A stretch of DNA of 64,000 bases from a phage: the NCBI GenBank assembly GCA_012474735.1, contig GCA_012474735.1_4085.1, one strand, 5' to 3'. The translations under genes were made by a program, and so were the position numbers. Position 1 is the first letter of the stretch, and each line of letters begins with the position of its first letter. Below, one piece after another: positions 1,692 through 55,015 of the stretch. The notes beneath the pieces are model-generated. The model saw nothing but the letters and a program-made list of their open reading frames with translations. It had not been told where the DNA came from and did not search any database.

Positions 1692-1804
1692 TACTTTTTA
1701 TCAAATACTTTAAAATAGTTTTCAGTACTGAATACTTATATAATAGATACACTTATGCACCCTGTGGGTCAGTGAGTTATCTCTCAATGAATATATATTA
1801 GCAA

Positions 1805-1828
1805 AGGGACTGACCGGAGTCAATCCCT
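1805..1828 (-). terminator. intrinsic terminator hairpin
   Basis: AGGGACTGAC-CGGA-GTCAATCCCT inverted repeat with flanking T/A runs, downstream of 1842..2426. Confidence 0.5.
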
Positions 1829-1841
1829 TTTTTAATCTTTT

Positions 1842-4699: not shown

Positions 4700-4807
4700 T
4701 ACTTTTTAAAAATAGTTTTCAGTACTTGATAGTACTAGCCACCAGCAAACAATAGATACATTTATGCACCCTGTGGGCTAGATTGTTTCAATGCATATAT
4801 AATAGCA

Positions 4808-4831
4808 AAGGGACTGACCGGAGTCAATCCC
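4808..4831 (-). terminator. terminator-like hairpin
   Basis: same AGGGACTGACCGGAGTCAATCCCT element as 1805..1828. Confidence 0.45.
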
Positions 4832-5271
4832 TTTTTCAATTATTTTTAAACTTGTTTTGGGTTGCGATATGTGATAGCGTTCGGGTACATTTGTTTAATG
4901 TTATTCCATGCCTGGTTAACATTGTAACCACTTGAGCGAATCAGTTGGTTACTACCGACACCTTGAAACACTACTTCGAATAAGAATTCTTTCATGCTTT
5001 CACCTCGCGATCTGCTTTACCTTTACGCCAGGACATTACTAATTGTTCGCGTTGCCATAAATCGAGTGATACAAAAAGTTTTGCGGTATCACTTTTAGGA
5101 TACTCGCCAGTAGTACCTAACCGATAAAACAGATCTTTCAGTACTGATAATTCTACTTGAATCATTTTATTACTCCTGATTGCGTTAATACTTCTACTAT
5201 TGCATGAATGATCATAAGTACAGCTAAAACAATAATCATCGGATTCATTTGCATAAGCTGTACTCCTTATA

Positions 5272-8734: not shown

Positions 8735-8848
8735 ACTTTTTATCAAATACTTTAAAATAGTTTTCAGTACTCAAACATTATACAATAGATACACTCCTGC
8801 ACCCTGTGGGCTAGTGAGCTATCTCTCAATGATTATATAATAACAAAA

Positions 8849-8868
8849 TGGCTGACCGAAGTCAACCA
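8849..8868 (-). terminator. terminator hairpin (possibly bidirectional)
   Basis: TGGCTGAC-CGAA-GTCAACCA with T-runs on both sides. Confidence 0.5.
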
Positions 8869-9099
8869 CTTTTTTCATTTATTTTTTAGCTTTAAGTACT
8901 GCGGCCTTTCGTGTCATGCCTTGCTTGATGTATTCCTGTACTTTCGCTTTACGTGCTTTAGCTTTATCTGCTTTAGTTTTAGGAGTACTGTAAACTATAC
9001 CGTTAGGATTCATTTAAATCACCATAAAGAATAGATAGGTTACTAACAACGCCGCGATCAATGCACCGACCAGGGCCGAACTGTAATAAGCTAATGATT

Positions 9100-39477: not shown

Positions 39478-39505
39478 TTCTTTACCCTCTTCAGTTGATG
39501 AAATG

Positions 39506-39539
39506 ATTATAGCAAAAAGGGCTGACCGAAGTCAACCCT
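39506..39539 (-). promoter_or_regulatory. terminator-promoter cassette
   Basis: hairpin AGGGTTGAC-UUCG-GUCAGCCCU plus T5 on minus strand (39513..39539); stem holds TTGACT -35, 18 bp before TATAAT 39506..39511. Confidence 0.6.
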
Positions 39540-39545
39540 TTTGTT

Positions 39546-40664
39546 TTAGATAATTTGTACTTCACCATAGATCTGCACGATTTGCTTTCCTGGATTCTCT
39601 TCAATGAGTTTAAGGAAAGATTTCAATGCTCCAATATGGTCTTCATAATACGCAATACGAATGAAGTTATATCCATTTTTTATTGCGTATTCTGTTTTGA
39701 TTTTATCGTGTTTTTTCCTCATAAGTCCGTTTCCCCATCCTGATTCACGTTCTTCAAAGTGATTACTACCATCATATTCAAATAACGTATTAATATCACG
39801 AATATAAAAATCATATGGAAGTTTTGATTTATTTTTTAAATCAGGAAATGTTTTCTCTCTTTCAGTAACAAACATTCCTCTCAAAAACTCTTTACAATCA
39901 TTATGACCAAATGAGTGTGTTTCTAATTGGGAACAGCATCCACACTTTTGTGCTTGTTTACTAGTAAACGCATAATAGTCTTGATTACACTCGTGTCCTT
40001 TATCACATATATATTTTACATAATAACGACCATTTGATTTCTTGTAAACTTCTTTTAATGTATATCCTAGTTCATTACAGCGTGTGTTAGCAATTGTTTC
40101 ACGCATTTCAGGTGTTATAAAATATCTAACGTTCATTGATGTTTTTGTAATTATATCATTTATTCTTCGTGGTTGTGTAAATCCATCGGAATATGTGAAT
40201 TTAATATATGACATTATCCCATTGTCTAAATGTTCATTTTCATATATATAGCATCCTCTTTCCTCAAGAGAACCCAATTTGGTTACATAGTAATAATAAT
40301 TTTCATCTGTATAGGTAAATGATGGCTTGAATTTATTGTTTGTTATTTTTTCAAGCTTTGTTTTTAAACCAGTTATTTTATAATTATCATACAATACCCC
40401 ATTATACATAATCAGTAAATTGTTATTACTATTTCCGTTTTTACCAAACTCACGTGATGATTTAACTGATAATCCAATAATAGTAATATTGTCAATATCT
40501 TTGTTTTTTAATTTTGCTTCTATGTCATCAACATGATCCTTAGCAGTGAGTCCTTTTGAAACCCTTTTTATATCTTCAGGCTTCATCCATTCAAAACGCA
40601 TACCAAGTTCTTCATGAAAATAAACTTTTTCACCATCTTCATTTAAATAATACTGTTCAAACAT
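39546..40664 (-). CDS. putative endonuclease-like protein
   Basis: C-terminal PYDFYI...FEYDGxxHF resembles PD-(D/E)xK nuclease domains seen in phage homing-endonuclease-like ORFs; Cys cluster. Confidence 0.35.
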   Translation of the reverse strand: MFEQYYLNEDGEKVYFHEELGMRFEWMKPEDIKRVSKGLTAKDHVDDIEAKLKNKDIDNITIIGLSVKSSREFGKNGNSNNNLLIMYNGVLYDNYKITGLKTKLEKITNNKFKPSFTYTDENYYYYVTKLGSLEERGCYIYENEHLDNGIMSYIKFTYSDGFTQPRRINDIITKTSMNVRYFITPEMRETIANTRCNELGYTLKEVYKKSNGRYYVKYICDKGHECNQDYYAFTSKQAQKCGCCSQLETHSFGHNDCKEFLRGMFVTEREKTFPDLKNKSKLPYDFYIRDINTLFEYDGSNHFEERESGWGNGLMRKKHDKIKTEYAIKNGYNFIRIAYYEDHIGALKSFLKLIEENPGKQIVQIYGEVQII

Positions 40665-40893
40665 TACTTAATACTCCTTTCCAGTACTGAACCCGTCCAG
40701 CACCATTAATTTTAGCTTGAATCTTATCTTTTTCGACAAGACCTTCTTTGTAATCGATGGAAGTATTATCGCACTGAATTACATCTAAATCAAGTACTTC
40801 TTGTGTAGTTAATGATGTATTATCTGCGATTTGTTGTAGAGTAATTACATCAGTACCAAAGAATTCAGCCAATCGTATAAAAGATAGTTTCAT
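40657..40893 (-). CDS. hypothetical protein (78 aa)
   Basis: ORF; terminator-promoter cassette upstream. Confidence 0.5.
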   Translation of the reverse strand: MKLSFIRLAEFFGTDVITLQQIADNTSLTTQEVLDLDVIQCDNTSIDYKEGLVEKDKIQAKINGAGRVQYWKGVLSNV

Positions 40894-40919
40894 GTGTTGC
40901 CTCTTGAGTTGATGAAATG

Positions 40920-40953
40920 ATTATAGCAAAAAGGGCTGACCGAAGTCAACCCT
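40920..40953 (-). promoter_or_regulatory. terminator-promoter cassette
   Basis: same GGCTGACCGAAGTCAACC hairpin with TTGACT -35 and TATAAT 40920..40925. Confidence 0.6.
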
Positions 40954-40958
40954 TTATG

Positions 40959-41318
40959 TTATTCTAACTCACTCATAGTACTAATAGTTAATCCCATTTC
41001 TTCTGCAATGTTGCATAACATACCAACTGCATTACGAAGAATATCAGTGTTGTCCACCGATAATGATGAGTTTTCATTTACAGTTGAAGACTCAATGTAG
41101 TACTCAAAATAACGAGAAGTTGAACGCACAACTTTAACACCTTCATACTTCTGTAGTTCAGAGTTGATACGCTCGATTAGTGAATCTTCCAGTACTCGAT
41201 AGTCACCATTCATTCCACGTTTCCATCCATCAGCAGGACGGAAATAAAAAGTTTTTGTACGTTGAATTGTTGAGATTGTTAGTGGGTTGTATTCTGCGAT
41301 TTCACTTAAAGATGCCAT
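40959..41318 (-). CDS. hypothetical protein (119 aa)
   Basis: ORF. Confidence 0.5.
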   Translation of the reverse strand: MASLSEIAEYNPLTISTIQRTKTFYFRPADGWKRGMNGDYRVLEDSLIERINSELQKYEGVKVVRSTSRYFEYYIESSTVNENSSLSVDNTDILRNAVGMLCNIAEEMGLTISTMSELE

Positions 41319-41424
41319 GTTGTATTCCTCATTTGGTGATGTACATAATACAGAAAGATAGAACAGGTGTCCATGTTTATATCTAAAATATCCAAATACT
41401 TTGGTGTAGCAAATACTACATCAA

Positions 41425-41619
41425 CTAATCCTCGCTGAAGACAACAATAAGGAATGACACGAACAATGCCGCATAACAAGGAGCTATCTTCATGTACCAC
41501 GGAACTTCATAATACCATGTACCCAATTCATCCCACGAAAAGATTATACTCACACCGAAGCCGATTAGCGAAAGTACAATGAAAGAAATCCAGAAACGCT
41601 TTGAATATACTAATAACAT
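41425..41619 (-). CDS. small membrane protein (64 aa)
   Basis: two hydrophobic segments; preferred over overlapping 41306..41500. Confidence 0.4.
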   Translation of the reverse strand: MLLVYSKRFWISFIVLSLIGFGVSIIFSWDELGTWYYEVPWYMKIAPCYAALFVSFLIVVFSED

Positions 41620-41657
41620 GTTATGTTCCTTTATGTGACCGAAGTCAATCCTTTCCT

Positions 41658-42173
41658 TTAATAATTATTCATTTCATCTTTGATTTGTTCTTCAATTTCG
41701 TCGAACATATCAGTACTAGATTCGTTCTTACTACTTACGTTCTGCATATCTTTAACGTACTGTGGACATTCAACATCAGTAAACTTATACCACTTAGGCT
41801 TCATCTGGAGCTTATCAATCAAACGATCACGAGACATTTTAATCTCTGACTCCGATGGTACGTAGTCATTACAAAACTCAGCAGGGAATCCGCTAATGTC
41901 GTTTACTTCAGTGTTTTGAATCTTCATACCACGACGCAAACATTCGTTAACAATATCAATATGACGCTTCTGTAAGTACAATAACTTGTTGTAGAAGAAT
42001 GTTACATGACCTGAACCCAACAGGTAAGTACTGTTAATTTTGAAATCACGTACACGCTTACGTGCTTGAACGTGTTTTTGTACAGCACCAAATACACGTG
42101 GGAGTTCACGATATTCAGCCATCAGATGTTGGTCAGCAAGTTCTTTAACGTGTACTAAGTTAATGCGTGTCAT
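41658..42173 (-). CDS. denV: endonuclease V / pyrimidine-dimer DNA glycosylase
   Basis: N-terminal MTRINL...[21 protein letters not shown]...KRVRDFKI...GHVTFFY closely matches recalled T4 endonuclease V. Confidence 0.85.
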
Positions 42174-42200
42174 GTATTCATCCTCTCGTTTCGATGAAAT

Positions 42201-42234
42201 GATTATAGCAAAAAGGGCTGACCGAAGTCAACCC
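42201..42234 (-). promoter_or_regulatory. terminator-promoter cassette upstream of denV
   Basis: hairpin 42213..42234 with TTGACT -35 (42225..42230) and TATAAT (42201..42206). Confidence 0.6.
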
Positions 42235-42641
42235 TTTTTTCTTTCAATCAAACATAGTCTACCAGAATGTACCATGCGATGGTGATTAGAACAAAGAATC
42301 ATACACTTTCGAATTTCATCTTTGATAGCATCTCGACTTTTACTGAACATAGAACTTGGTGTATGTTCTTTGGTATTAGGGTCAAGATGGTGAAAGTCTA
42401 AACATTCTGGATACTTCATCATACAAATACTACAACCATAAAATGATTTAACTCTGGTCATGAAATCTTTATTTTTTCTTTTGATTTCTTCAAGTTTTTT
42501 GACATCAGTTTTTTTATTTCTGGTTTTCTTACTGGTAATATTACTACAACCTTTGCATGTATTTCTATGTTTCCCAGTATCTTTTCTTATACCAAATTCA
42601 CTAATGTCTTTTTCAATATTACACGTGATACACTTCTTCAT
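42228..42641 (-). CDS. HNH endonuclease
   Basis: Cys-rich N-term; HNH motif LDFHHLDPNTKE...CSNHH. Confidence 0.65.
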   Translation of the reverse strand: MKKCITCNIEKDISEFGIRKDTGKHRNTCKGCSNITSKKTRNKKTDVKKLEEIKRKNKDFMTRVKSFYGCSICMMKYPECLDFHHLDPNTKEHTPSSMFSKSRDAIKDEIRKCMILCSNHHRMVHSGRLCLIERKKG

Positions 42642-42653
42642 TGTTTAATCCAT

Positions 42654-42941
42654 TTATTCAACAATCCCCAACTTCACAATCTCATACCCGTCCAGATAGC
42701 CGTAGGAACACTCAGGTGTTTCATAAGATGAACCATCATGGATGCCCTGGCATTGACTTTTGGAATTCTCAAGCAATCGTTGTAGTACTGATACGTCATC
42801 AAGAACGTAATACAAGTTAGCATATAGGTCAGTTACAATACAGTACTCCAACATATCAAATGTATCAATCGAAATTTCAACCTTAGCAAATCGTTTCTTT
42901 TCTTTATTATACAGTGCGTACATATTAATCTCCATAATCAA
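42654..42941 (-). CDS. hypothetical protein (95 aa)
   Basis: ORF; may be C-terminal part of upstream kinase-like ORF. Confidence 0.4.
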   Translation of the reverse strand: MIMEINMYALYNKEKKRFAKVEISIDTFDMLEYCIVTDLYANLYYVLDDVSVLQRLLENSKSQCQGIHDGSSYETPECSYGYLDGYEIVKLGIVE

Positions 42942-43341
42942 GTTTAACTAACTTACCATTCAGATAACCAAAGTTTTCTGGCTTCGCATCTGAATAAAAG
43001 AAGTCAGTACTTAACTCTGAATTCAATGCTAAAGCACACAACTCCACCCAAAATAAACCCCTATGTTGAACTGGCTTACAACGTTTCTGTACAGTTACTA
43101 GTCCAGTACATGATGACCACAAAGTAGGACAGATACCAGTATCACTACGATTGGAGTACTGCATCCACGAACGTTCATTGAGGTTAGCTATCATCCCTGT
43201 TAAGAATAGCTTCCAACTTTTAAAGGTTGGAATCTTGATAGCATATTCCCCAATGAGGATAACAGTTCGTGTTGCACCTTTAAAATCTATATTCATATTT
43301 TTAATTAGAAGAACACAAACCAAGTCAAGAATAAATTCCAC
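42925..43341 (-). CDS. protein kinase-like protein (possibly truncated)
   Basis: GEYAIKIP, DAKPENFG and KLDYGD motifs resemble kinase beta3-Lys, catalytic loop and DFG. Confidence 0.4.
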   Translation of the reverse strand: MEFILDLVCVLLIKNMNIDFKGATRTVILIGEYAIKIPTFKSWKLFLTGMIANLNERSWMQYSNRSDTGICPTLWSSCTGLVTVQKRCKPVQHRGLFWVELCALALNSELSTDFFYSDAKPENFGYLNGKLVKLDYGD

Positions 43342-43556
43342 ATTACAAATAAAGACATAGTGGTTTTATGTACAATATCAGCAGTACTGGTCCATCCTCC
43401 ACCGTGTCCTATTCCATTTATGAATAGAACTAAGAACAAGATACCATTTACTACAATAGTACATACTAAGTACACAAATACATTCCATGCAAGTCCAGGG
43501 GATACTAAAGTAAATGGTAAAACTATTAGTAGTATTAGAACTAATAATATTTTCAT
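43305..43556 (-). CDS. small membrane protein (83 aa)
   Basis: highly hydrophobic. Confidence 0.45.
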   Translation of the reverse strand: MKILLVLILLIVLPFTLVSPGLAWNVFVYLVCTIVVNGILFLVLFINGIGHGGGWTSTADIVHKTTMSLFVMWNLFLTWFVFF

Positions 43557-43783
43557 TTATCGCCTCACTTAATTAACGTGACATATCACGTAATATTAGT
43601 ACGAATCAGATTCCCAGTACTCGATTGCTTCTTTCAGCAATTCTTTAGCACGTTGTTTTGCAATGCGAGCGGGAAACTGATATGTGTACATTAACTGACG
43701 CTTCACTTCATTCAGTTAAAGCTGTTCATGGTACAGTGCATCCATCAGTCGATTACGAGTACGTAGTTTCATATAAGTTATCC

Positions 43784-44338
43784 TTATTTCAAAGAATCAT
43801 AGTAAGCAGTGTCAAAGATTGGAGTCATAATAACATAGTCAATACGGTCAATGTAAGTTGAACTCCACATTTCTGGTTTGTCATATAACTGACGCTCGCG
43901 TTCATTCATACGAGTCAGTACTTCTTCCAATTTACTACGTGAATCCATCAATGTATTACTCGAACCATAAGTGAAGTACTCAGTCCAATGATATTCATAT
44001 TCAGTACTGATAGATTGAATAGTACCATCTTTGAAATGAGCTAAGGCATAACCTTTCTCTACAAAGTTATCAGGTGGAAGAACACCATCTGGATTAGTTT
44101 TCAAGGCTTGTGCTAACTTTTCTTTAATTTCAGTTAACGTGCATACTGAACGAATGTTCTTCAGGTTTGATACTTGAAAATCACTGTACTTTCCAAAGAA
44201 AAAGACACGCCAATCTTTAGGTTCATTATCAGATACGGTAGCATTAGGATGATGGGCGAGTAAACGAAGAAGGCCAGCTTTATGACCGTTAATGTAGATT
44301 TCATGGATGTGGTTAGCAGTTTTCTTAAAAGTAATCAT
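43784..44338 (-). CDS. hypothetical protein (184 aa)
   Basis: ORF. Confidence 0.5.
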   Translation of the reverse strand: MITFKKTANHIHEIYINGHKAGLLRLLAHHPNATVSDNEPKDWRVFFFGKYSDFQVSNLKNIRSVCTLTEIKEKLAQALKTNPDGVLPPDNFVEKGYALAHFKDGTIQSISTEYEYHWTEYFTYGSSNTLMDSRSKLEEVLTRMNERERQLYDKPEMWSSTYIDRIDYVIMTPIFDTAYYDSLK

Positions 44339-44414
44339 GGTAGTTCCTCGATTGTAGGGATGAGAAGTTCATCCCATTGATAAGCATTATACAGTACTGA
44401 ATGTGTTTGTCAAC

Positions 44415-44810
44415 TCAAAATAAATTCATTTCATGTGCGTATTGTGGTTCAAGATAAGATAAGTTTTTGAAACTGTCTTTCAATTCTGCATCATCTACGT
44501 ACACAGTACCAGGTACATTCCCCATAGTGAAGCCAACCCAAACAGTCATGTTTCCAGTTCCTAAGCGGGGCATTGATAGCGTCCCATCAGGTGAAACATC
44601 AAACGCTACACTAAAGTCATCCGTTACAACTTCCGAACCATTTTCCAGAATAATACAACCACGTTCTTTAAGCTTCTGAATGTGGATAGCAGCCTCTACA
44701 GCACGTTTAAAGTTATAGTAAGACTCTTTATCCTCAAACATAGATTGTTTAACCAGACGCTTGTTTAGCTCGGTTACTTTGTACATTTGTCGCATTATTT
44801 CAACACCCAT
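44415..44810 (-). CDS. hypothetical protein (131 aa)
   Basis: ORF. Confidence 0.5.
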   Translation of the reverse strand: MGVEIMRQMYKVTELNKRLVKQSMFEDKESYYNFKRAVEAAIHIQKLKERGCIILENGSEVVTDDFSVAFDVSPDGTLSMPRLGTGNMTVWVGFTMGNVPGTVYVDDAELKDSFKNLSYLEPQYAHEMNLF

Positions 44811-45049
44811 AGTGGTAGGATTTCATATGAACCTGGAGGTGCTGGATTGATAATCTCAGGGTATTCAGTACTGTTAGGATTACCACCAGCATTGAACTCA
44901 GCAAGTAATAATTCGAGTTCATTCCTATCATGTACAACAAACACGCAATATCCAGTTCCTTCTTCAAGAACTGTAGTTGACCCCGCACAATCCCATACGG
45001 TATCAATACATAATAATTCTTTAGTGTTTTTATTACGCAACGCAAACAT
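44795..45049 (-). CDS. hypothetical protein (84 aa)
   Basis: ORF; preferred over overlapping 44800..45213. Confidence 0.4.
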   Translation of the reverse strand: MFALRNKNTKELLCIDTVWDCAGSTTVLEEGTGYCVFVVHDRNELELLLAEFNAGGNPNSTEYPEIINPAPPGSYEILPLWVLK

Positions 45050-45058
45050 ATATGTCTC

Positions 45059-45427
45059 CTATCGATTCGGCATATTCTTTCGTAGTCGCAAGAGAAATTC
45101 AACCACTGACCATGTTGTAATGAAGGCAATATAAGTTGCAAGGAATCCAGTAAGAATAAATGCAACCAACGTACTACCATTTGGGGAATCAGTTTTAATG
45201 CCGATGACACCATCGGCTACAGTGAAACATGTAGCCATTAATGTGTAACCTACGTACAACACAAAGAAAAACTCATTCTCCATTGAAGGATAGAAACGGT
45301 TAAACACTTTATAAAATTTAAAGTACAGTAGGATTATACCAACAAAGGCATAGAATGTAAACAGTGTTGTTATAATATATGAGATTAGGTTCAAATTATA
45401 CATATCAACGCTCCGGTAGATTATCAC
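45059..45427 (-). CDS. small multi-TM membrane protein (family B)
   Basis: hydrophobic; C-term RKNMPNR shared with neighbours. Confidence 0.55.
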   Translation of the reverse strand: MIIYRSVDMYNLNLISYIITTLFTFYAFVGIILLYFKFYKVFNRFYPSMENEFFFVLYVGYTLMATCFTVADGVIGIKTDSPNGSTLVAFILTGFLATYIAFITTWSVVEFLLRLRKNMPNR

Positions 45428-45752
45428 GTAATGTTTTAATTCGATGATACATTTTCATACCAATATTACCAAAGATACCATATCCAAGTACTAAAATGTA
45501 TGCGATAAGCATAGTAATAATTACTATAGTACCAAAACTATAATGTACACTACTGATACCCATTGTAGTTTCAACGATTATTTGAGAAACTGAAAGAATC
45601 AAAAGTACAACTACAATTGGATGATTTGGGTACATTCGGTTGAACAACGTTTTGTACTTAAAGAAGCACAGTACTCCACCAAATAAGAAGTAAACAATGT
45701 AAATGCAAGCAACAGCATAGGCAAACATGTTAGTGTAATAAATCATTACCAA
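45405..45752 (-). CDS. small multi-TM membrane protein (family B)
   Basis: C-term RDNLPER. Confidence 0.55.
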   Translation of the reverse strand: MVMIYYTNMFAYAVACIYIVYFLFGGVLCFFKYKTLFNRMYPNHPIVVVLLILSVSQIIVETTMGISSVHYSFGTIVIITMLIAYILVLGYGIFGNIGMKMYHRIKTLRDNLPER

Positions 45753-45755
45753 TCC

Positions 45756-46094
45756 TTACTTTTCAGGGATATTAGAACGCCATATATCAATGCGATGAAC
45801 TAGTCCAAAGAACAACCATACTGGAACGGCAGCTATCATAACAACAAATGAAAACCCAGTCAAGACCGATACCAGATTTAATTCATCAGTACTATACCCA
45901 CATATCAGTACTTCTAATATTCCCCACGTACATGCACAAAACATCAAGAATGAAATTGGGGCATCATAGTAGATACGTTCATATAAAGTAGTGTATCGGA
46001 AGAATGCAATAATGTAGCAAAACATATAATACACCCAAACCAAAGATACTACATAAAATGATACTTTGTTTATTAATTCAAAATATTGTTCCAT
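45756..46094 (-). CDS. small multi-TM membrane protein (family B)
   Basis: C-term RSNIPEK. Confidence 0.55.
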   Translation of the reverse strand: MEQYFELINKVSFYVVSLVWVYYMFCYIIAFFRYTTLYERIYYDAPISFLMFCACTWGILEVLICGYSTDELNLVSVLTGFSFVVMIAAVPVWLFFGLVHRIDIWRSNIPEK

Positions 46095-46096
46095 TT

Positions 46097-46378
46097 TTAC
46101 CCCAATATATATTCAGAGAGTAATGTATTAGCTTCATCTTTGTTCTTAAGGTAATACATGTAATATAGATTCGGTTCACCATCTTTAGCACTCAAATCGA
46201 AGTACTTTAAACTATGTACTTTCATAGTAAAAACAAATAATGACTTAAAACCAATCTCACCGTACTTAATAAACAGTTCATCCAAATGAATGTAACTTTT
46301 TGATTTGGATAATTCTTTAACGTCTGCATCAATTTCAGATAAAAGATGCTTACCTATTAAGTTTTCAAATGAACGCAT
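46097..46378 (-). CDS. hypothetical protein (93 aa)
   Basis: ORF. Confidence 0.5.
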   Translation of the reverse strand: MRSFENLIGKHLLSEIDADVKELSKSKSYIHLDELFIKYGEIGFKSLFVFTMKVHSLKYFDLSAKDGEPNLYYMYYLKNKDEANTLLSEYILG

Positions 46379-46439
46379 GATTTTATCCTTTACCGCAATT
46401 TTTATGGTTTATTAAGAATACATCAGAACATCAGTTCTG

Positions 46440-47114
46440 TCAATAAAAAACTGGATCTTCTTCAGTAATTGGTATTTCTCTACGCACATCACACGAAAGA
46501 GGATCAGTAATGAATACATTCCCATCTTTATCCATCATCACATTACTTGAATGAATGTCTGGTACAAAACGCCCGTGAAACTCTTTCATGATGTTAGCAG
46601 CGACCGTTGCAATAGCAATCTCTTCAGAATTTCCACGCATATCATTCACTGAAGTTGCGTACTGACCAGCATGTGCATACGAATACAAATCTCCAATTTT
46701 AGTACTAACAAAGTCATCATAATTATTTTTTTGTTTAATTATAGGATAGTACTTGTCCATCTCATACCATCCAAAGTTTCCTTGTTCGTTTGCACTGTAG
46801 ATCACAGGAAGAAACTTGGTTCCTGCGTTTTCAATGCAGTACTTTGCATAAGCACGAAAACCATCCCAGCGTGAAGTGGTTACTTTAAATGCACGTCCAG
46901 AATAGTTTTTATGTTCAACTACTACAGAGTACATCCCCATTCCAAGCAAAGTAAGTCCAGCAGCTTTAACTTGTGGAAAGATTACGCGTTCAGCATAAGG
47001 AATATCAAACTCCATCGCACAACGAGTTTTTGATGGACGCAAAATGTCAATTAAAGTTTTGAATATTTCTTGCTTAGTCATTACTTTATCCTCTGTAGTT
47101 AATACCAACATCAT
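46440..47114 (-). CDS. protein kinase-like protein
   Basis: Gly-rich LLGMGMYSVV, AFKV, and DIHSSNVMMDKDGNVFITDP catalytic-loop-like segment. Confidence 0.4.
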   Translation of the reverse strand: MMLVLTTEDKVMTKQEIFKTLIDILRPSKTRCAMEFDIPYAERVIFPQVKAAGLTLLGMGMYSVVVEHKNYSGRAFKVTTSRWDGFRAYAKYCIENAGTKFLPVIYSANEQGNFGWYEMDKYYPIIKQKNNYDDFVSTKIGDLYSYAHAGQYATSVNDMRGNSEEIAIATVAANIMKEFHGRFVPDIHSSNVMMDKDGNVFITDPLSCDVRREIPITEEDPVFY

Positions 47115-47122
47115 AACAAAAA

Positions 47123-47143
47123 AGGCTGACCGAAGTCAACCCT
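47123..47143 (-). terminator. terminator hairpin (cassette family)
   Basis: GGCTGACCGAAGTCAACC with flanking A/T runs. Confidence 0.55.
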
Positions 47144-47150
47144 TTTATTA

Positions 47151-47570
47151 TCATTTACAGTTTTCTATAACTATTGCACGTTTTAGTATTTTACTTTCAT
47201 AAACATACTTAAGATGACCTTCTTCACGAATACGATTGAACACATATCCTAGTTTATCTTTTAGTACTGAAGCGGTATCAATGTCAAGATTAACTTCAAC
47301 CCCTCCTGTTAATTTAACTTTATATGTAAAGCTAAAAGCATCACCAGATTCAACCAATGGGACTACTTGTTCATACGTATTCAACATAACTCGTTCATCA
47401 TTAACTAAATTATATATTACTATATCACAAGTTTTTACCCCAATTTCCTCTAAGGTAGGAGCATTGTCTACTATAACATCTTTTACTGTATTAGCAACCT
47501 GTTTAGCATCTGCTGCATATACATTAAAACTAAAAAGTACTAAAATAATACTTAAAAAAATCTTTTTCAT
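47151..47570 (-). CDS. secreted hypothetical protein
   Basis: signal peptide MKKIFLSIILVLFSFNVYA. Confidence 0.55.
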   Translation of the reverse strand: MKKIFLSIILVLFSFNVYAADAKQVANTVKDVIVDNAPTLEEIGVKTCDIVIYNLVNDERVMLNTYEQVVPLVESGDAFSFTYKVKLTGGVEVNLDIDTASVLKDKLGYVFNRIREEGHLKYVYESKILKRAIVIENCK

Positions 47571-47579
47571 TATATATCC

Positions 47580-47909
47580 TTATTTTATTTTACACGTCAT
47601 ATCGGGTTGTGCTGGTTTATTATTTTTAAACGGATTAGGTTTTTTATCTTTCTTTTTATCTTTTAAAGGTTTTTTGTCTTCTTTTTTATCTTTATCTTTG
47701 TCTTTTTTATTTTTATCAGGTTCAGAGGGAGTATTACATTGTGCTGGGGGTTGATTAGTTGGAGTACAGCTATTGTCTGATGGGAGTATTACTTCGTTAC
47801 AATTGTAAAATAGTAAACTTTTATTTGTGGTTAAATTATGAAAACGATAGTTACGTTCATTATTATAATAAATTGTTTTAGTACTTTCAATGTCATTACA
47901 CATTGCCAC
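47580..47909 (-). CDS. Lys/Asp-rich low-complexity protein
   Basis: KDKDKDKKEDKKPLKDKKKDKK tract. Confidence 0.45.
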   Translation of the reverse strand: MAMCNDIESTKTIYYNNERNYRFHNLTTNKSLLFYNCNEVILPSDNSCTPTNQPPAQCNTPSEPDKNKKDKDKDKKEDKKPLKDKKKDKKPNPFKNNKPAQPDMTCKIK

Positions 47910-47913
47910 GGAA

Positions 47914-48165
47914 TCACCGAAACTCTTTTTCTATTCCCATTACATCAGTCTTACGCTCAGATAGTATACCTGAAGTATATGAATCTTTGTTGTCAAACGC
48001 ATTAAATCCAATAGTTCTGTCGGTGTCGTGTATTATTCCTTTTGTGTATGAGGTAGTATAGAACTCCCCATTTCTGAAATCCTGCCTTGCTACGGAGCAA
48101 TGATAATCTGCACCATAAGCAGTACTGGAAAATAATACAATTCCAAATATAATATATTTTTTCAT
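47914..48165 (-). CDS. secreted hypothetical protein
   Basis: trimmed to MKKYIIFGIVLFSSTAYG signal-peptide start. Confidence 0.5.
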   Translation of the reverse strand: MKKYIIFGIVLFSSTAYGADYHCSVARQDFRNGEFYTTSYTKGIIHDTDRTIGFNAFDNKDSYTSGILSERKTDVMGIEKEFR

Positions 48166-48208
48166 TGTAATCCCTCTTCTTAATTCCTCTTTTGTATTTA
48201 CAAAAAAA

Positions 48209-48228
48209 AGGCTGACCGAAGTCAACCT
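48209..48228 (-). terminator. terminator hairpin (cassette family)
   Basis: AGGCTGACCGAAGTCAACCT after stop of 48238..49782. Confidence 0.55.
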
Positions 48229-48237
48229 TTAGTTTTA

Positions 48238-49782
48238 TCATTTACCGTATTTGCTCATGATGTCCTTTTCCCAATGAGTTACGTTACCGTTATCGTAATC
48301 TTTAAAGGAATTATCAAGAGTAGTTAATGCATATTCGTATGCTTCAGGTGATTCAATGTCAACATCATCAGCACCATTTACTAAATCAGTCCATGCTTTT
48401 TGTAGTTTACGAGCATTTTTACCAACATTACTTTTAATCCAACTAATGTTTTTGTTGATACTCTTATTATCAGCACCAGCTTTTTTACCAATATCGGATA
48501 TCCACATCATTAGCTTTTGGAGTTCATGAATGGAGTTGTCGTTCATTTCACGATCTTTAGCCAATTCTGCTTCCATGCCATCAGTATCAGTACCATCTTT
48601 AGAACCTACATCAATTCCATGTTTAGCTAATAGTTTACCAAGTTCAAAGAATGCTGCCTCAGCAGGGAAGTCATAACCTTTGTCTTTGTAGTTGTTCCAT
48701 GCACTATCAAACTCATCTACAAATCGGTTGGCATAATCTGGATTGTCCACGAGAGCTTTGTACACTGCCATTGCATGTTCAAATCCTTCTTTGTCAGAAC
48801 CAAACTCTCCCATTTCTGGACGATGAATGTAACCATCCATATCAACAGTATCAGGTAAATCATCATGAGATGTTTCAGCATCTTTCTGGTCAACTGCACC
48901 TTCTTCATCTGCACGAACTAAGTAACCATCTTTTGATACTTTCTCACCATGTTCAGCTTCATACTTTTTCATAGTATTGAATGCAGAATTCATAACAGTG
49001 ATGAATCGAGACTTCTCACCTGGTGAGTAAGAATCTAATGCTGCTTTAATAGCATCATGTACTAATTGAATCTTATCATCTTTGCCTTCAAGACGATTTT
49101 CTAACTTAGCAAGAACATTCTTAACTTGCTGGGCGTTAGCACGGTCTTCTTTACCTATACGGTTAACAGTATGGAGGATGCTTTCAAGACTTGCTTCTTC
49201 AGCAGTCGCTTCTTCTTGACCTTCAAGTGCACGCATGATAGTACTGAATACTTCAGTTGGTTCAGTACTGGTATTTCCACTCATTGCATCAAGTACAGCT
49301 TGTGCTTTGACTTTTAATTCTTCTTTAGGTACAGATTGCAATTCTTTCACAATACCTTGGATAAGTTGTGGTTTATTAGCAAAAATCTTACCTAACTTAT
49401 CAGACAATTCTTTGACAGGGTTAACCGCCTTTGGTGCTTCTTGTTTTGGTTCTTCTTTCGCAGGAGAAGACTTTTCTTTTTCTTCACGTTCCATATCAGC
49501 TAGGCGTTGTTTTTGTGTAGCATTAAGAAGTCCCAATGAATTAACATAACGTAGCTTTTCTAGCTCAGTCATGTTCTCAGTACTCTTAACTTCACCTGCT
49601 TCTGCGTTTGCTTTACCAGCTAGACCAGTTCCTTGGTTACGTGATCCACGTGAACCTTGACCTGCTTGATAACTATTTGGTCGGCGGTTGCGTTCACTCC
49701 ATTTATCAGAGTGACCAGCCATGTTACCACCATTTTTATCAGTAAAATTACTTGGCATTTGATTTCTCTCCATAGATTTCAT
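48238..49782 (-). CDS. large hypothetical protein (514 aa)
   Basis: Gly/Ser/Asn-rich N-term then charged helical body; TATAAATA (T4 late-promoter-like) in upstream region. Confidence 0.55.
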   Translation of the reverse strand: MKSMERNQMPSNFTDKNGGNMAGHSDKWSERNRRPNSYQAGQGSRGSRNQGTGLAGKANAEAGEVKSTENMTELEKLRYVNSLGLLNATQKQRLADMEREEKEKSSPAKEEPKQEAPKAVNPVKELSDKLGKIFANKPQLIQGIVKELQSVPKEELKVKAQAVLDAMSGNTSTEPTEVFSTIMRALEGQEEATAEEASLESILHTVNRIGKEDRANAQQVKNVLAKLENRLEGKDDKIQLVHDAIKAALDSYSPGEKSRFITVMNSAFNTMKKYEAEHGEKVSKDGYLVRADEEGAVDQKDAETSHDDLPDTVDMDGYIHRPEMGEFGSDKEGFEHAMAVYKALVDNPDYANRFVDEFDSAWNNYKDKGYDFPAEAAFFELGKLLAKHGIDVGSKDGTDTDGMEAELAKDREMNDNSIHELQKLMMWISDIGKKAGADNKSINKNISWIKSNVGKNARKLQKAWTDLVNGADDVDIESPEAYEYALTTLDNSFKDYDNGNVTHWEKDIMSKYGK

Positions 49783-49818
49783 TTTTTTCTCTATGTCTAT
49801 ATTTATAGTATAAAGAAA

Positions 49819-49838
49819 AGGCTGACCGAAGTCAACCT
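49819..49838 (-). terminator. terminator hairpin (cassette family)
   Basis: AGGCTGACCGAAGTCAACCT. Confidence 0.55.
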
Positions 49839-49845
49839 TATTTTG

Positions 49846-49959
49846 TTACTTAGATTGTTCTTGTGCAGGTGGATTTACTTTTTGATCCACTACATAGAAT
49901 ACACCACCAACCAGTACTGCGGCGATGAGTGCAGCAACTACAAATTTTAAACCTTGCAT
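49846..49959 (-). CDS. small membrane peptide (37 aa)
   Basis: found by eye; MQGLKFVVAALIAAVLVGGVFYVV. Confidence 0.3.
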   Translation of the reverse strand: MQGLKFVVAALIAAVLVGGVFYVVDQKVNPPAQEQSK

Positions 49960-50000
49960 ATATGATACCTCAGTTATATTGAGAAGTTATGATACAACAA

Positions 50001-50022
50001 AGGGCTGACCTTAGTCAACCCT
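50001..50022 (-). terminator. terminator hairpin (cassette family)
   Basis: AGGGCTGAC-CTTA-GTCAACCCT plus T-run. Confidence 0.55.
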
Positions 50023-50027
50023 TTTTA

Positions 50028-50411
50028 TTACTTCTTGAACTTATGTTTTTCACTTTCGATTGCATTCACGATTTCATCATGAATTTTACGAAGATTGTGA
50101 GTTTTCTTTAGAGATTCATGTAATGCACGGAATGCAGAGTGTACAGTTGCTTTAAAGTGCTCTTTAGGAGTTACTTTAAGTTTCTCGATAATATCACGTA
50201 CATAGATTGGGTGATCCTCAAACACACGATTAAGCTCATGACCTAGTGATTCTAGGCTAAATGCTTTTTCACGGGATGGACGATCATGTGCAAGACTTTG
50301 GTCTGGTTTTAGAAGACCTAGTGAATCTAGATACTTGTGCTTATGTGCATTGTCTAGACCAGAAATATCAACATCATGTGATGGATCTTTCTTATTCCAT
50401 TTATCAACCAT
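50028..50411 (-). CDS. hypothetical protein (127 aa)
   Basis: shares Y-x-x-SLGLL motif with N-terminal region of 48238..49782. Confidence 0.5.
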   Translation of the reverse strand: MVDKWNKKDPSHDVDISGLDNAHKHKYLDSLGLLKPDQSLAHDRPSREKAFSLESLGHELNRVFEDHPIYVRDIIEKLKVTPKEHFKATVHSAFRALHESLKKTHNLRKIHDEIVNAIESEKHKFKK

Positions 50412-50526
50412 TTTTATAACTCCTATAAGAGATAAATTTTACTATAATATTTATAGTTCCGTTGTCATTTATATCGAATGACATAAAACATTATATCATA
50501 ATAAGAATGGTTGTCCCAAAGTTAAA

Positions 50527-50970
50527 TTAGTACTGATCAAGTTCAGATGTAAAAATGAATGCATCCATGTCTTCCAACGTAAGTTTTAAGTCTGGTACAT
50601 ACTTAAGAATAACGCACTCTGGCTTCTTAATAGCAGCTTGATAAGCAGCAATGGCAAGGGATTCCAATTGCTGTGCTGTATAATTTTTACGTTCTGCATT
50701 AAAAACTTTGTTTTTGATATCACCACCTGGGAGTTTTTCAAACTCACGCATAACTGCGGTAAGAACATCGTCAGCAGTGTTACTATATACCCATTGGGGT
50801 AATTGCATTACATTATAAATCACACCACTATCATCCATCAAAGAGATCCATTTGTACCCATCACTAGCACTGAACAAACGCCCTTTTAGTACTGTGTTAT
50901 TAGTTAAATTTACAAATGCAAAAATATCTTGTTCGTTAAGTTCAATACTATTAACATTTACCCAACTCAT
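50527..50970 (-). CDS. hypothetical protein (147 aa)
   Basis: trimmed to MSWVNVN start. Confidence 0.5.
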   Translation of the reverse strand: MSWVNVNSIELNEQDIFAFVNLTNNTVLKGRLFSASDGYKWISLMDDSGVIYNVMQLPQWVYSNTADDVLTAVMREFEKLPGGDIKNKVFNAERKNYTAQQLESLAIAAYQAAIKKPECVILKYVPDLKLTLEDMDAFIFTSELDQY

Positions 50971-50983
50971 TACGATTCCCCAT

Positions 50984-51580
50984 TCATAAATCACGAACAA
51001 TATTCATTAAACACAATTTAGGTTTTATAGCATTCAACACCCATATGCATTCTTTGTAAGTAGCTATTATATCATCTAAATGCTCAGTTACAATGCTTTC
51101 TTGAAAATATTCTTCATCATTGAGCTTTGCTAATTTAGTAACATCACACGTAGGCACTATAGGTCTGGATTGTACACCCATTCCATTATTGATATTAGTG
51201 AAATGTACAAAATGGTACTTCACAACACCTTTATCTAGATTTATTATACATGACAAATTTTCCAACTCAGTTAGTTTTTTATTACAAGTAACATTAATGA
51301 AACCAGCATTATAGGCTCTATAATCATCTACTGATATCTCAAAATCATTACGTTCAAATATAAGTGAAATGAGTTGGTCCAGTGGTTTGACATTCATATA
51401 TTTTAATGAATTTACGTATGATACTTCAATCTTAGATGAAATTATCTTTTTACTAAGTGCAGTTAAATCTTTGTTAGATTTAACTGTTAAAACAATAGGT
51501 TTAAACCTAGAACTTTTGTTCTTTTTTGATACTTTAAAACGACCTTTACGATTCATAATTTCCTCAATTAATAATTTCAC
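50984..51580 (-). CDS. hypothetical protein (198 aa)
   Basis: ORF. Confidence 0.5.
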   Translation of the reverse strand: MKLLIEEIMNRKGRFKVSKKNKSSRFKPIVLTVKSNKDLTALSKKIISSKIEVSYVNSLKYMNVKPLDQLISLIFERNDFEISVDDYRAYNAGFINVTCNKKLTELENLSCIINLDKGVVKYHFVHFTNINNGMGVQSRPIVPTCDVTKLAKLNDEEYFQESIVTEHLDDIIATYKECIWVLNAIKPKLCLMNIVRDL

Positions 51581-51785
51581 ATTTAACGTGTGGTTTATAT
51601 AGCATAATTAACCCATTTTTAAGTACAATGATTGTTGCTCTGTTAGTAATCGAAACGTTTTTAATTATACTTTTTTTATATGTTTCAACATATTTCTCTT
51701 CATAATTTATACATTTAACATATTCTTTTTGTTTAGCACTTACAACAGTACTGAATAATATCAGTACAAGTACTATATATTTCAT
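51564..51785 (-). CDS. secreted small protein
   Basis: signal peptide MKYIVLVLILFSTVVSA. Confidence 0.5.
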   Translation of the reverse strand: MKYIVLVLILFSTVVSAKQKEYVKCINYEEKYVETYKKSIIKNVSITNRATIIVLKNGLIMLYKPHVKCEIIN

Positions 51786-51837
51786 TACTATACCTTATAA
51801 ACAAAAAGGAATTCATTTAAGAATTCCTATTTTACAA

Positions 51838-52131
51838 TCATTTATCTAACATACCATTGTGCAAACGTTCATATACTTCAGTTCGACGCAAATTAACAAT
51901 ATCTTCTGCGTATTTTAATGTAAATGCCCATGCTTTTGGATGTACGTTAAGCTTCATACGAATTCGATTTTTCATCAACTCTCCACTTAAACGAATAAAT
52001 TCGTGTACACCACGACTACCGTATTCAGTAATTAAATCATTAATGTACATATCACGAAGAGTTTCATCTGCACATTCTTTAACCATTTCTACGTCAGCGA
52101 CGATGCTTTCATTAACTGAAGTACTGATCAT
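51838..52131 (-). CDS. hypothetical protein (97 aa)
   Basis: ORF. Confidence 0.5.
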   Translation of the reverse strand: MISTSVNESIVADVEMVKECADETLRDMYINDLITEYGSRGVHEFIRLSGELMKNRIRMKLNVHPKAWAFTLKYAEDIVNLRRTEVYERLHNGMLDK

Positions 52132-52143
52132 TTTTAATTTACC

Positions 52144-52410
52144 TTATTTAAATTCGACTGTAATTTTATCACCTTCAACTACGAACTTACAGTTGTAGCG
52201 ACGTGCCATATCCATGTACATATGCTCAGAGTACCAAGGAACATCAATAATCGGATGCTCTGCATATTGTAGAACTTCACGGTCGCCCACTGTAGTAATG
52301 ATGAAAGGAATGTTCATCTCTCGTAAAAACAGTTCAGCACCAGGAGAACGATTAATAAATTCAGTATCATTACGTAAAGTAAATCCATTATATTGTAATT
52401 TAAGCTTCAT
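52144..52410 (-). CDS. hypothetical protein (88 aa)
   Basis: ORF. Confidence 0.5.
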   Translation of the reverse strand: MKLKLQYNGFTLRNDTEFINRSPGAELFLREMNIPFIITTVGDREVLQYAEHPIIDVPWYSEHMYMDMARRYNCKFVVEGDKITVEFK

Positions 52411-52424
52411 ATGTTATCCTCTAT

Positions 52425-52769
52425 TCAATACCATTCTTTAAAACCATTAAGTTCGGCTACGTGAGTGATTATAACACATATAACATTCAGGTCAAGTATA
52501 ATTTGATCATAATTTAATTTTATACGATCATCATTATATGCTCTAAAAACTACATCGTAATCAAAGAAATTTGCGTTTTCATCATTCATTGAAACGATTC
52601 GGTATCTACGTCTTCCATCTGTATTGAATATAGTTAAACACTGTTGAAACTTTCTCATTAACTGTTTAGATAGGATATTATAATATTCAATATCTTTTTG
52701 TGAATTACGTGGGTCATCAGGAAGATAGAATGAAACAAATTTCTTTAATTCTATTTGAGTTTTATCCAT
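52425..52769 (-). CDS. hypothetical protein (114 aa)
   Basis: ORF. Confidence 0.5.
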   Translation of the reverse strand: MDKTQIELKKFVSFYLPDDPRNSQKDIEYYNILSKQLMRKFQQCLTIFNTDGRRRYRIVSMNDENANFFDYDVVFRAYNDDRIKLNYDQIILDLNVICVIITHVAELNGFKEWY

Positions 52770-53202
52770 ATATTACCTCATGTGTTTCTCTTTTACTTTG
52801 TCGGAACTCATCCTTTGCTTCCTTAACTGACATGATACGAACTAATTTAGCACTACCGCAATAGTACTGAACCTGATTACGACCAATGTCTACATGGTGG
52901 TCTGGAACTTCATATACAGATATAGCAAACCCAGCACGATGCAATTTACCCAAGTCCATAGTGAAGAATCTGAACAAATCTTTCAAACTTTGACAGCCAA
53001 ATACCCATCCACTTTTGATTGAATAGATCCCATCCTCAGTTGGTTCAGGTTGGAATTGAGAAGGTGTAGTCATAAGCAAACGGTCAAATCCATTTTTAGT
53101 ACTGTATCTGGTTGAATACCGTGCAAACGGACCTACAGTTCGTGCAGGATCTAAGTTAGGTTCAATGTAACTAAATTTAAGTTCAAAACGATATACATAC
53201 AT
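52762..53202 (-). CDS. hypothetical protein (146 aa)
   Basis: ORF; cassette promoter upstream. Confidence 0.5.
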   Translation of the reverse strand: MYVYRFELKFSYIEPNLDPARTVGPFARYSTRYSTKNGFDRLLMTTPSQFQPEPTEDGIYSIKSGWVFGCQSLKDLFRFFTMDLGKLHRAGFAISVYEVPDHHVDIGRNQVQYYCGSAKLVRIMSVKEAKDEFRQSKRETHEVIYG

Positions 53203-53230
53203 AATTAAAATCCTCTAATTTATTAAGAGA

Positions 53231-53263
53231 ATTATAACAAAAAAGGCTGACCGAAGTCAACCT
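53231..53263 (-). promoter_or_regulatory. terminator-promoter cassette
   Basis: hairpin 53244..53263 with TTGACT -35 (53255..53260), 18-bp spacer, TATAAT (53231..53236). Confidence 0.6.
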
Positions 53264-53502
53264 TTGTTTTGAAGTTCTTGAACTAATTGTCGTACTTCGT
53301 TAATATTTTTACACTGCTTTACAGTGAAGTAATCATACTTACGACCATAGGTTCTTGGGTCATCACCTTCCATATACTGCTGCACATCAAAGATTTGTAA
53401 GTAGGGATGCTGCATAACACGAATATTATCACTTTGATAAATCAACATAATATCAATCCTTATATTTACACAAGCCACCAAAACTAGTTTCTTTAGCACC
53501 AC
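53257..53502 (-). CDS. hypothetical protein (81 aa)
   Basis: ORF. Confidence 0.45.
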   Translation of the reverse strand: MVLKKLVLVACVNIRIDIMLIYQSDNIRVMQHPYLQIFDVQQYMEGDDPRTYGRKYDYFTVKQCKNINEVRQLVQELQNKG

Positions 53503-53803: not shown

Positions 53804-53805
53804 GA

Positions 53806-54958: not shown

Positions 54959-55015
54959 ATTTTTTACCTCAAGTTTAAGTGTTAAGTTTCAGACTACAGG
55001 AACCATTATACAGTA

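Follow-up and report, generated by a model that had tools for sequence, protein, structure and literature searches.

The window studied here is a stretch of 64,000 nucleotides of phage DNA (GenBank assembly GCA_012474735.1, contig GCA_012474735.1_4085.1), in which a short hairpin-forming element recurs on the minus strand. These elements are very probably cassettes of the promoter-early stem-loop (PeSL) type, that is, composite terminator-promoters which also serve as recombination sites, carried by an Asteriusvirus jumbo phage. A preliminary description of the DNA had proposed that one element terminates the upstream gene and promotes the next. Every computational test of this idea was favourable, and we infer promoter and terminator activity from the outcome. 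How can about 45 bases hold both functions? Read as RNA, the element consists of an A-tract, the hairpin GGGTTGAC-UUCG-GUCAGCCC and a U-tract; read as DNA, the last 5 nt of the 5' arm and the first loop base form a -35 hexamer, TTGACT, with a -10 box beyond the T-tract.

Copy number and genomic setting

A search with the 22-mer AGGGTTGACTTCGGTCAGCCCT, allowing up to 3 mismatches, gave nine matches, each of them on the minus strand, where shuffled sequence led us to expect 0.00. The core TTGACTYCGGTCAG added two further copies (1810 and 4814, with a UCCG loop and one extra A-U pair) and a truncated one at 41635. A covariance model made from the cassette copies and run unfiltered on both strands of the whole window returned exactly 11 full cassettes of 60-78 bits, all on the minus strand; the runners-up were antisense readings of the same sites (32 bits at most) and a variant at 61677-61731 (23 bits). 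The preliminary count of at least ten copies therefore stands for the whole window, but not for the span to which it was assigned (39506-53263), where there are eight intact copies (39518, 40932, 42214, 47122, 48208, 49818, 50001 and 53243) and a remnant; the other three intact copies lie at 1.8-8.9 kb.

The placement of the cassettes is as uniform as their sequence. All 11 are co-oriented with the flanking minus-strand open reading frames (ORFs) and sit between a stop codon, shortly before the A-rich tract, and the next ribosome-binding site (mostly of GAGG type) and ATG, shortly after the -10. The window has two blocks of minus-strand genes (1-18 kb and 36-64 kb) with a plus-strand block between them (19-36 kb). 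The cassettes are confined to the two minus-strand blocks of small, mostly hypothetical ORFs, and the covariance scan found none in the plus-strand block. The source of the window is an Asteriusvirus (121Q/JP4-like) jumbo coliphage: bases 39000-54000 share 97.9% identity with Escherichia phage JP4 over 96% of their length, and 121Q, G17, slurp01, PBECO4 and other Asteriusvirus jumbo phages (350-380 kb) are 96-99% identical to the same bases.

The putative promoter half

The preliminary description placed TTGACT 18 bp upstream of TATAAT in several copies, and this exact arrangement is found in four (39535, 40949, 42231 and 53260). One copy each has TATGAT and TATCAT at the same 18-bp spacing, while the 17-bp spacing comes with TATACT (one copy), TATTAT (two) and TAATAT (one). 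Altogether, all but one of the 11 copies show a -10 at 17-18 bp, and in eight of these it is of the extended (TGn) type. We infer that the 17-18-bp spacer is forced, having to hold both the 3' arm and the U-tract, and that TGn offsets its length. Upstream of the stem's -35, the 5' A-tract followed by GGG lies where we take the proximal UP subsite to fall, going by the UP-element consensus reportedly defined by Estrem et al.

Is this coupling peculiar to the window? We collected 123 distinct TTGAC-N4-GTCA[AG] contexts from the window and from fetched related loci, and scored a -10 where at least 5 of 6 positions matched. A -10 is present in 90 of them (73%), the spacer is 17 or 18 bp in 103 and TGn occurs in 84; no antisense reading of a perfectly palindromic (GTCAA) copy has such a -10. 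Selection by the outer stem only (AA[AGT]GG-N5-N4-N5'-CC[CTA]TT with complementary N5), which leaves the inner stem free, recovered 79 hairpins, 74 with TTGAC and one with TTGAT. A -10 follows in 57 of those 75 and in none of the four with other inner stems. A generic scan of the window for hairpins with a T-tract agrees: the one hairpin that has the cassettes' outer stem but a TTGGC inner stem (61701-61724) has no -10.

A second promoter class, free of hairpins, is also present on the minus strand, with 14 perfect TTGACA-N16-TATAAT sites (16-bp spacer, no TGn) at 1-19000, 44386-44413, 55005-55032 and 59319-59346. Most of the spacers end in a conserved [CT]AGTACTG that abuts the -10 (TTGACA-N8-[CT]AGTACTG-TATAAT), and downstream of several of these promoters comes a leader hairpin of the GGGGAGAAATGATTCTCCCC type.

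Which polymerase would read the promoter half of the cassettes? One possibility is that a phage RpoD-like sigma factor, and not host sigma-70, recognizes them as a middle class, so that the cassettes would not be early. Asteriusvirus and CBB-like phages do encode an RpoD-family sigma factor, a point against reading by the host enzyme, and the 14 hairpin-free promoters could be the true immediate-early set. We nevertheless consider this very improbable. KVP40-like, Aeromonas 65-like, CR3-like and Brochothrix A9 phages, which may or may not encode such a factor, have the cassette too, the elements closely match the rules for host sigma-70 and extended -10 promoters, and the genes downstream, denV and an ORF annotated as a kinase, have typical prereplicative functions.

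Could the promoter look instead be incidental, the product of a chance TTGAC in ordinary intrinsic terminators and of AT-rich DNA after their T-tracts? The published annotations that we found for the group say terminator only. In the GenBank record of G17 the hairpins are entered as ARNold terminators, and UE-S1 likewise has them as terminators; the CBB paper gives RpoD-like promoters and terminators as separate lists, and its supplement has the motif among the terminators only (Torf515, Torf518 and Torf520). In bacteria the identical hairpin sometimes serves as a plain terminator, and one of the window copies, cassette 5, has no -10. Yet a -10 at 17-18 bp in 90 of 123 contexts far exceeds the roughly 6% that we estimate for chance in AT-rich DNA; TGn occurs in 84 of the 123, and the -10 is missing from antisense readings of palindromic copies and from hairpins with another inner stem. 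The fixed inner stem speaks against a constraint on structure only, because that would let it covary like the outer stem. Moreover, efficient termination would leave the genes between one cassette and the next with no strong promoter but that of the cassette. Terminators pure and simple are thus a very improbable account of the elements, which we continue to read as terminator and promoter in one.

The putative terminator half

RNA of the sense strand folds into hairpins of 8-13 bp with energies from -12.4 to -19.5 kcal/mol. Antisense hairpins are weaker by 4-9 kcal/mol because the U.G wobble (TTGAC opposite GTCAG) turns into a C.A mismatch. The hairpin outlined in the preliminary description, with a G-U wobble, a UUCG loop and a U-tract, is recovered in its essentials: the wobble is found in all copies, the loop is UUCG in eight of the 11 (UCCG in two, UAAG in one), and the U-tract measures 3-8 U. 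The elements have what is expected of intrinsic terminators, namely a GC-rich stem, a short loop, a 3' U-tract, a position after a stop codon and strand specificity.

We aligned 76 distinct copies, taken from the window and from other phages. Pairing holds in 96.7% of the stem cells, and compensated changes occur at outer pairs (at one of them GC 54, AU 11, GU 8, UA 2); none of 500 shuffles equalled the observed pairing or covariation. The outer stem covaries and the TTGAC/GTCAG inner stem is fixed, although the constancy of TTGAC/GTCA across the aligned phage copies is in part built in, these bases having served as the search key. Independent support, free of the key, comes from the covariance-model scan, the generic hairpin and T-tract scan and the selection by outer stem. 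The 3' arm ends in G, giving the U.G wobble, in 72 of 86 distinct hairpin sequences, and 46 of the 86 have a UUCG loop. A G and not an A at this position may also serve to avoid a second TTGAC on the opposite strand.

A different explanation of such conservation is a promoter with a DNA operator, in which TTGAC-N4-GTCA would bind a dimeric phage regulator over the -35 (for early shut-off, for example) and no RNA terminator would exist. The repeat is centred on the -35, conservation at the level of sequence is typical of protein-binding sites, and palindrome-binding regulators are plausible in this phage because another palindrome, CAGTACTG, is heavily over-represented (58 copies against about 1 expected), with some copies in promoter spacers. 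The operator is nonetheless highly improbable: the wobble makes an imperfect DNA palindrome and a valid RNA pair on the sense strand only, pairing runs well past the palindrome into the covarying outer stem, a U-tract always follows, and the loops vary, yet the RNA-specific stabilizer UUCG dominates. Phages with no common lineage or host, Brochothrix phage A9 among them, have the element as well, which points to universal host machinery and not to a phage-specific protein.

Conservation and probable recombination among relatives

Two sites can be followed into distant relatives. One is the cassette in front of denV, found in the window and in Pectobacterium phage CBB alike; the other lies before the kinase-annotated ORF here and before its homologue in a 360-kb relative. 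Identity at both orthologous sites is 100% in the hairpin and 66-68% in the adjoining downstream coding sequence, and the flanks on the upstream side show no relationship, a pattern suggestive of purifying selection on the cassettes. Together with the fixed inner and covarying outer stem, this substantiates the preliminary argument that conservation of sequence, beyond structure, supports the dual role.

Among close relatives, gene content changes at the cassettes. Local BLAST of window positions 36-57 kb against G17, UE-S1, JP4, 121Q, Ec-M-J and UB gave about 21 distinct internal alignment breakpoints. Eight of them fall at cassettes, which cover about 4% of the region (binomial p = 7e-7, a value that overstates the enrichment because gene-sized insertions and deletions, or indels, tend to end between genes anyway). 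Three indels in UE-S1 are the clearest: where the window has two cassettes and a module between them (Table 1), UE-S1 has one hybrid cassette, whose upstream flank matches that of the upstream copy and whose downstream flank matches that of the downstream copy. The junctions show no flanking duplications. In Ec-M-J and UB, 0.7-0.85 kb of other genes replace the mini-module at 49852..49991; JP4 and Ec-M-J have an extra gene at cassette 2 (40932), and in 121Q a replacement begins at 39542. The half-element at 41635 looks like a scar.

On the minus strand, two free-standing endonuclease genes, annotated in JP4 as homing endonuclease (39546-40664) and HNH (42228-42641), each lie immediately 5' of a cassette, and the HNH ORF ends at the TGA within the TTGAC of cassette 3. 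Might the repeats themselves be mobile? A transposable repeat resembling miniature inverted-repeat transposable elements or repetitive extragenic palindromes was rejected, as the orientation always follows the genes, the copies sit between the stop codon and the next ribosome-binding site or start, and flanking duplications are absent. A tRNA-like element and a chance palindrome were also rejected; ARAGORN found no tRNA or tmRNA in the window, and Rfam at gathering thresholds gave no family over its whole length.

Points against the dual role and a proposed mechanism

Besides the partly built-in invariance, the inflated breakpoint statistic and the phage sigma factor, several points weigh against the reading of the cassettes as terminator-promoters. 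Cassette 5 (48212) has no convincing -10, and a T4-late-like TATAAATA overlaps the -10 of cassette 6 (49800-49815, minus strand), so that some copies may not be sigma-70 promoters. A spacer of 18 bp is longer than sigma-70 prefers, which in our view is why a near-consensus -35 is retained alongside the extended -10. The U-tract is just 3-4 nt long in three window copies, and two of them, 1810 and 4814, may only attenuate because they have 3 U. Finally, 5'- or 3'-end mapping, RNA-seq or reporter data for phages with the exact cassette were not found in the searchable literature. As a separate observation, cassette 6 lies before a gene for a virion structural protein of 514 amino acids (aa) according to the annotation of relatives, and this site may serve both the early and the late transcription machinery.

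How would the cassette work? RNA arriving from upstream, A(n)GGGUUGAC-UUCG-GUCAGCCC-U(n), would fold into the 8-13-bp hairpin with its stable cUUCGg tetraloop and act, with the U-tract, as an intrinsic terminator or attenuator. It would insulate the upstream unit and leave a protective 3' hairpin on its mRNA. Termination is expected within the U-tract and hence in the spacer of the promoter that follows. As DNA, the 5' arm and the first loop base would supply the -35, the 3' arm and T-tract the 17-18-bp spacer, and TGn and TATAAT would follow. Transcription by host sigma-70 RNA polymerase would begin within a conserved CATC(A/G)A motif, some 7 nt beyond the -10, and yield a short leader with a GAGG ribosome-binding site; the hairpin would not be part of the new transcript. 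Since about 45-65 bp are near-identical between copies, the cassettes may act as portable homology. Exchange between neighbouring copies would delete or insert the module between them, each module keeping its own promoter and terminator.

E. coli RNA polymerase often remains on DNA after intrinsic termination and can re-initiate nearby (PMC6978380). With the termination point inside the next promoter, direct re-use of the polymerase would be possible, although this is speculative.

Positions of the cassettes and associated features

The cassettes, the related hairpins and the variable modules are collected in Table 1.

Table 1. Coordinates of the cassettes, of related elements and of cassette-bounded modules in the window (gene functions as annotated or predicted).
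Feature	Position	Strand	Sequence	kcal/mol	Bits	Neighbours and remarks
Cassette 1	39506..39544	-	Hairpin GGGTTGAC-TTCG-GTCAGCCC (39518-39539) after A-tract; then T5, TGC, TATAAT (39511-39506)	-17.6	77.7	Predicted start site near 39499; upstream of 256-aa P-loop ATPase-like ORF (38707-39477); directly downstream of homing-endonuclease ORF (39546-40664)
Cassette 2	40920..40958	-	As cassette 1; TTGACT-18-TATAAT, TGn	-18.3	76.4	Upstream of 78-aa ORF, then homing endonuclease
Cassette 3	42202..42240	-	TTGACT-18-TATAAT, TGn	-19.0		Upstream of denV (pyrimidine-dimer glycosylase, 41658-42173)
Cassette 4	47110..47148	-	TTGACT-18-TATGAT, TGn	-14.8		Upstream of ORF 46440-47114, protein kinase per relatives' annotation; no Pfam match
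Cassette 5	48200..48234	-	Hairpin and T8; no convincing -10	-13.6	60.4	Directly after 514-aa gene (virion structural protein per relatives' annotation); effectively terminator-only
Cassette 6	49807..49844	-	TTGACT-17-TATACT	-12.4		Upstream of 514-aa structural-protein gene (48238-49782)
Cassette 7	49989..50027	-	TAAG loop; TTGACT-18-TATCAT	-17.3		Upstream of 37-aa ORF
Cassette 8	53231..53269	-	AAGG/CCTT outer stem (compensated); TTGACT-18-TATAAT, TGn	-13.9		Upstream of 146-aa ORF (52762-53202); stop of preceding ORF is TGA within TTGAC
Cassette 9	8837..8874	-	GTGG/CCAT outer stem (compensated); TTGACT-17-TATTAT, TGn	-15.9		Conserved structured leader follows
Cassette 10	4799..4837	-	GGGATTGAC-TCCG-GTCAGTCCC, one extra A-U pair; 17-bp spacer, TATTAT, TGn	-19.5		
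Cassette 11	1795..1833	-	Variant as cassette 10; -10 TAATAT, TGn	-19.5		
Truncated remnant ('half PeSL')	41630..41660	-	AAAGGATTGACTTCGGTCAC fused to unrelated sequence; 3' arm ends at GTCA, no T-tract, no -10	-3.2		Missed by covariance model
Terminator-only variant	61701..61724	-	Outer stem as cassettes, inner stem differs: AAGGGTTGGC-TTAT-GCCAACCTTT, T8; no -10	-16.4		
Module, homing endonuclease and 78-aa ORF	39549..40899	-				Between cassettes 1 and 2; absent from UE-S1
Three-ORF module	47159..48203	-				Between cassettes 4 and 5; absent from UE-S1
Mini-module, 37-aa ORF	49852..49991	-				Between cassettes 6 and 7; absent from UE-S1
HNH endonuclease insertion	42249..42652	-				Exactly between preceding stop codon and cassette 3 A-tract; absent from G17, 121Q and UE-S1

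Other repeated elements in the window

Several further repeats share the window with the cassettes. The 8-bp palindrome CAGTACTG, counted over the whole window, is densest at 15-18.6 kb. It occurs in promoter spacers, beside promoters and inside plus-strand terminator stems, and may be the target of a DNA-binding factor or a nuclease of the phage. A conserved leader element of 55-65 nt is found about 25-30 nt downstream of a -10 in nine copies on both strands (plus: 12835, 15308, 17248 and 17463; minus: 15376, 8810, 7133, 4777 and 1768), some forming convergent overlapping pairs. It mostly comprises a small hairpin of variable sequence, an ACUAA-type linker and an invariant CCCA-N(1-3)-GGGUG, and it is also present in 121Q and three other phage contigs; no Rfam family matches it. 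MAFFT and RNAalifold recovered the CCC/GGG stem only, the small upstream hairpin, which seems by eye to covary, being left unaligned. The element could be a promoter-proximal regulatory RNA, either for antitermination (nut/put-like) or a small RNA.

On the plus strand, about ten tandem paralogous ORFs (358-433 aa) occupy 22915-33950; the one tested (26535-27683) has RCC1-like repeats. Most of them are followed by a conserved terminator-like hairpin, GCCAGTAC-NNN-GTACTGGC with a T-rich tail, at a period of about 1.22 kb (25260-35854). Another small repeated terminator family consists of two identical terminator-like hairpins, AGCCCAC-CTTAAACA-GTGGGCT followed by T6, on the minus strand about 730 bp apart (11281-11302 and 12009-12030).

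Distribution across phages and bacteria

How far does the cassette extend beyond Asteriusvirus? The 18-mer GGTTGACTTCGGTCAGCC occurs at 39 loci in IMG/VR. In 121Q, all seven exact matches to it lie in three loci, two of which (L012 and L028) have copies with flanks matching window copies. A 39-mer of the cassette is found in 174 phage records (Vibrio 48, Escherichia 35, Aeromonas 19, Klebsiella 12, Pectobacterium 10, Cronobacter 10, and others), among them KVP40, VH7D, Aeromonas phage 65, CR3/CR9, Xanthomonas XbC2, Stenotrophomonas phages and Brochothrix phage A9. The lineages represented are RaK2-like jumbo phages of six host genera, KVP40-like and Aeromonas 65-like relatives of T4, CR3/CR9-like phages of 150 kb, Xanthomonas and Stenotrophomonas jumbo phages and the Gram-positive Brochothrix A9. 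They share 30-39 bases comprising the A-tract, GGTTGAC, UUCG, GUCAGCC, T-tract, TGn and -10, and in nearly all phage copies the T-tract, TGn and -10 follow the hairpin.

Bacterial genomes give a different picture, the element being all but missing from cellular DNA. In 596 Gb the 18-mer matched 50 times, against about 17 expected by our own estimate, mostly in coding sequence of GC-rich genomes or as plain terminators, generally with no -10; with counts near the chance estimate and such contexts, a general bacterial element was rejected. The 39-mer had no match in 28 Gb of E. coli genomes, which argues that the cassette was not borrowed from the host. Near-identity across unrelated phage lineages could reflect horizontal spread, or else convergence on a 45-bp design that is nearly fully constrained. 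It is tempting to see the cassette as a pan-phage, horizontally exchanged 'plug' instead of a lineage-specific repeat, with the overlap handing the same polymerase from unit to unit and resetting transcription at each cassette; we hold this view to be doubtful, if worth stating.

Implications

For annotation, the consequence is immediate: in RaK2/121Q-like phages these sites are recorded only as terminators, and the restarting promoters are missing from the records. With the promoters added, the roughly 50 small genes of unknown function in the region can be arranged into a concrete operon map. The PeSL reading also explains much of the difference in gene content in this region between Asteriusvirus genomes that are otherwise 97-99% identical, and it takes the PeSL idea of a regulatory cassette that doubles as a recombination handle beyond the T4 family. 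As a compact natural part with an assignable role for nearly every base of its roughly 45 bp, the cassette may interest designers of insulated expression units. It does not amount to a new mechanistic category unless polymerase hand-off or transfer across families proves true.

Comparison with known systems

The cassettes share features with three familiar classes of element and depart from each. Like intrinsic cUUCGg terminators, they have a GC-rich stem of 8-13 bp, a 4-nt loop and a U-tract just after a stop codon, and ARNold predicts them; ordinary terminators, however, keep structure and not sequence, whereas the cassettes fix TTGAC/GTCAG and couple it to a -10 at a set distance. Their TGn -10s are those of extended -10 sigma-70 promoters, which usually tolerate a poor -35, but the cassettes also keep a near-consensus one. 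As with the 'morons' of lambdoid phages, accessory genes travel with their own promoter and terminator. Moron boundaries, in contrast, are not conserved repeats and are not thought to mediate mobility (PMC2839356), while the cassette boundary is the very repeat at which exchange occurs.

The closest parallel is the PeSL. Arbiol et al. 2010 described PeSLs in phi1 and RB49 and divided them by position into five subclasses, in one of which the stem-loop overlaps the -35 box; they also demonstrated promoter and terminator activity, and recombination between copies giving indels and mini-circles (PMC2839356). Comeau et al. 2014 extended them to PST/T4 and nt-1/KVP40, the nt-1 stem being A3-4G3-loop-C3T3-4 (PMC4122927). 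The resemblance to PeSL-type cassettes noted in the preliminary description extends to all the features that can be tested in silico: an AT-rich 5' part, sigma-70-like -35 and -10 boxes about 17 bp apart and overlapped by a stable stem-loop, many near-identical copies among small accessory ORFs, degraded half-elements, and indels or replacements between close relatives that are bounded by the elements, with crossovers inside them. KVP40 has the same layout. At 21.1 kb of its genome, GAAAAGGGTTGACTGCGGTCAGCCCTTTCGCGTATTAT stands before an ORF, with the same GGGTTGAC-N4-GTCAGCCC hairpin and the same spacing to the -10; it is the same element as the window cassettes and fits the nt-1/KVP40 stem description (PMC4122927).

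There are also differences. The window phage is a RaK2/121Q-like jumbo myovirus (Asteriusvirus) and not a T4-like member of the Straboviridae, the group from which PeSLs have been described; this concerns taxonomic scope and not mechanism, and the T4-like KVP40, VH7D and Aeromonas 65 carry the sequence. Nearly all cassettes follow one architecture (-35 in the 5' arm, T-tract spacer, TGn), as opposed to the five subclasses in phi1/RB49. Activity and mini-circles were shown by experiment for RB49/phi1, while the window cassettes are known from their sequence. A literature search with the literal motif retrieved no paper, and the RaK2, Sharanji and fEgEco12 papers do not discuss promoters, terminators or stem-loops. 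The cassettes are thus of a known kind, the PeSLs of T4-like phages, and extend it to RaK2-like jumbo phages, where we found the sites described only as terminators.

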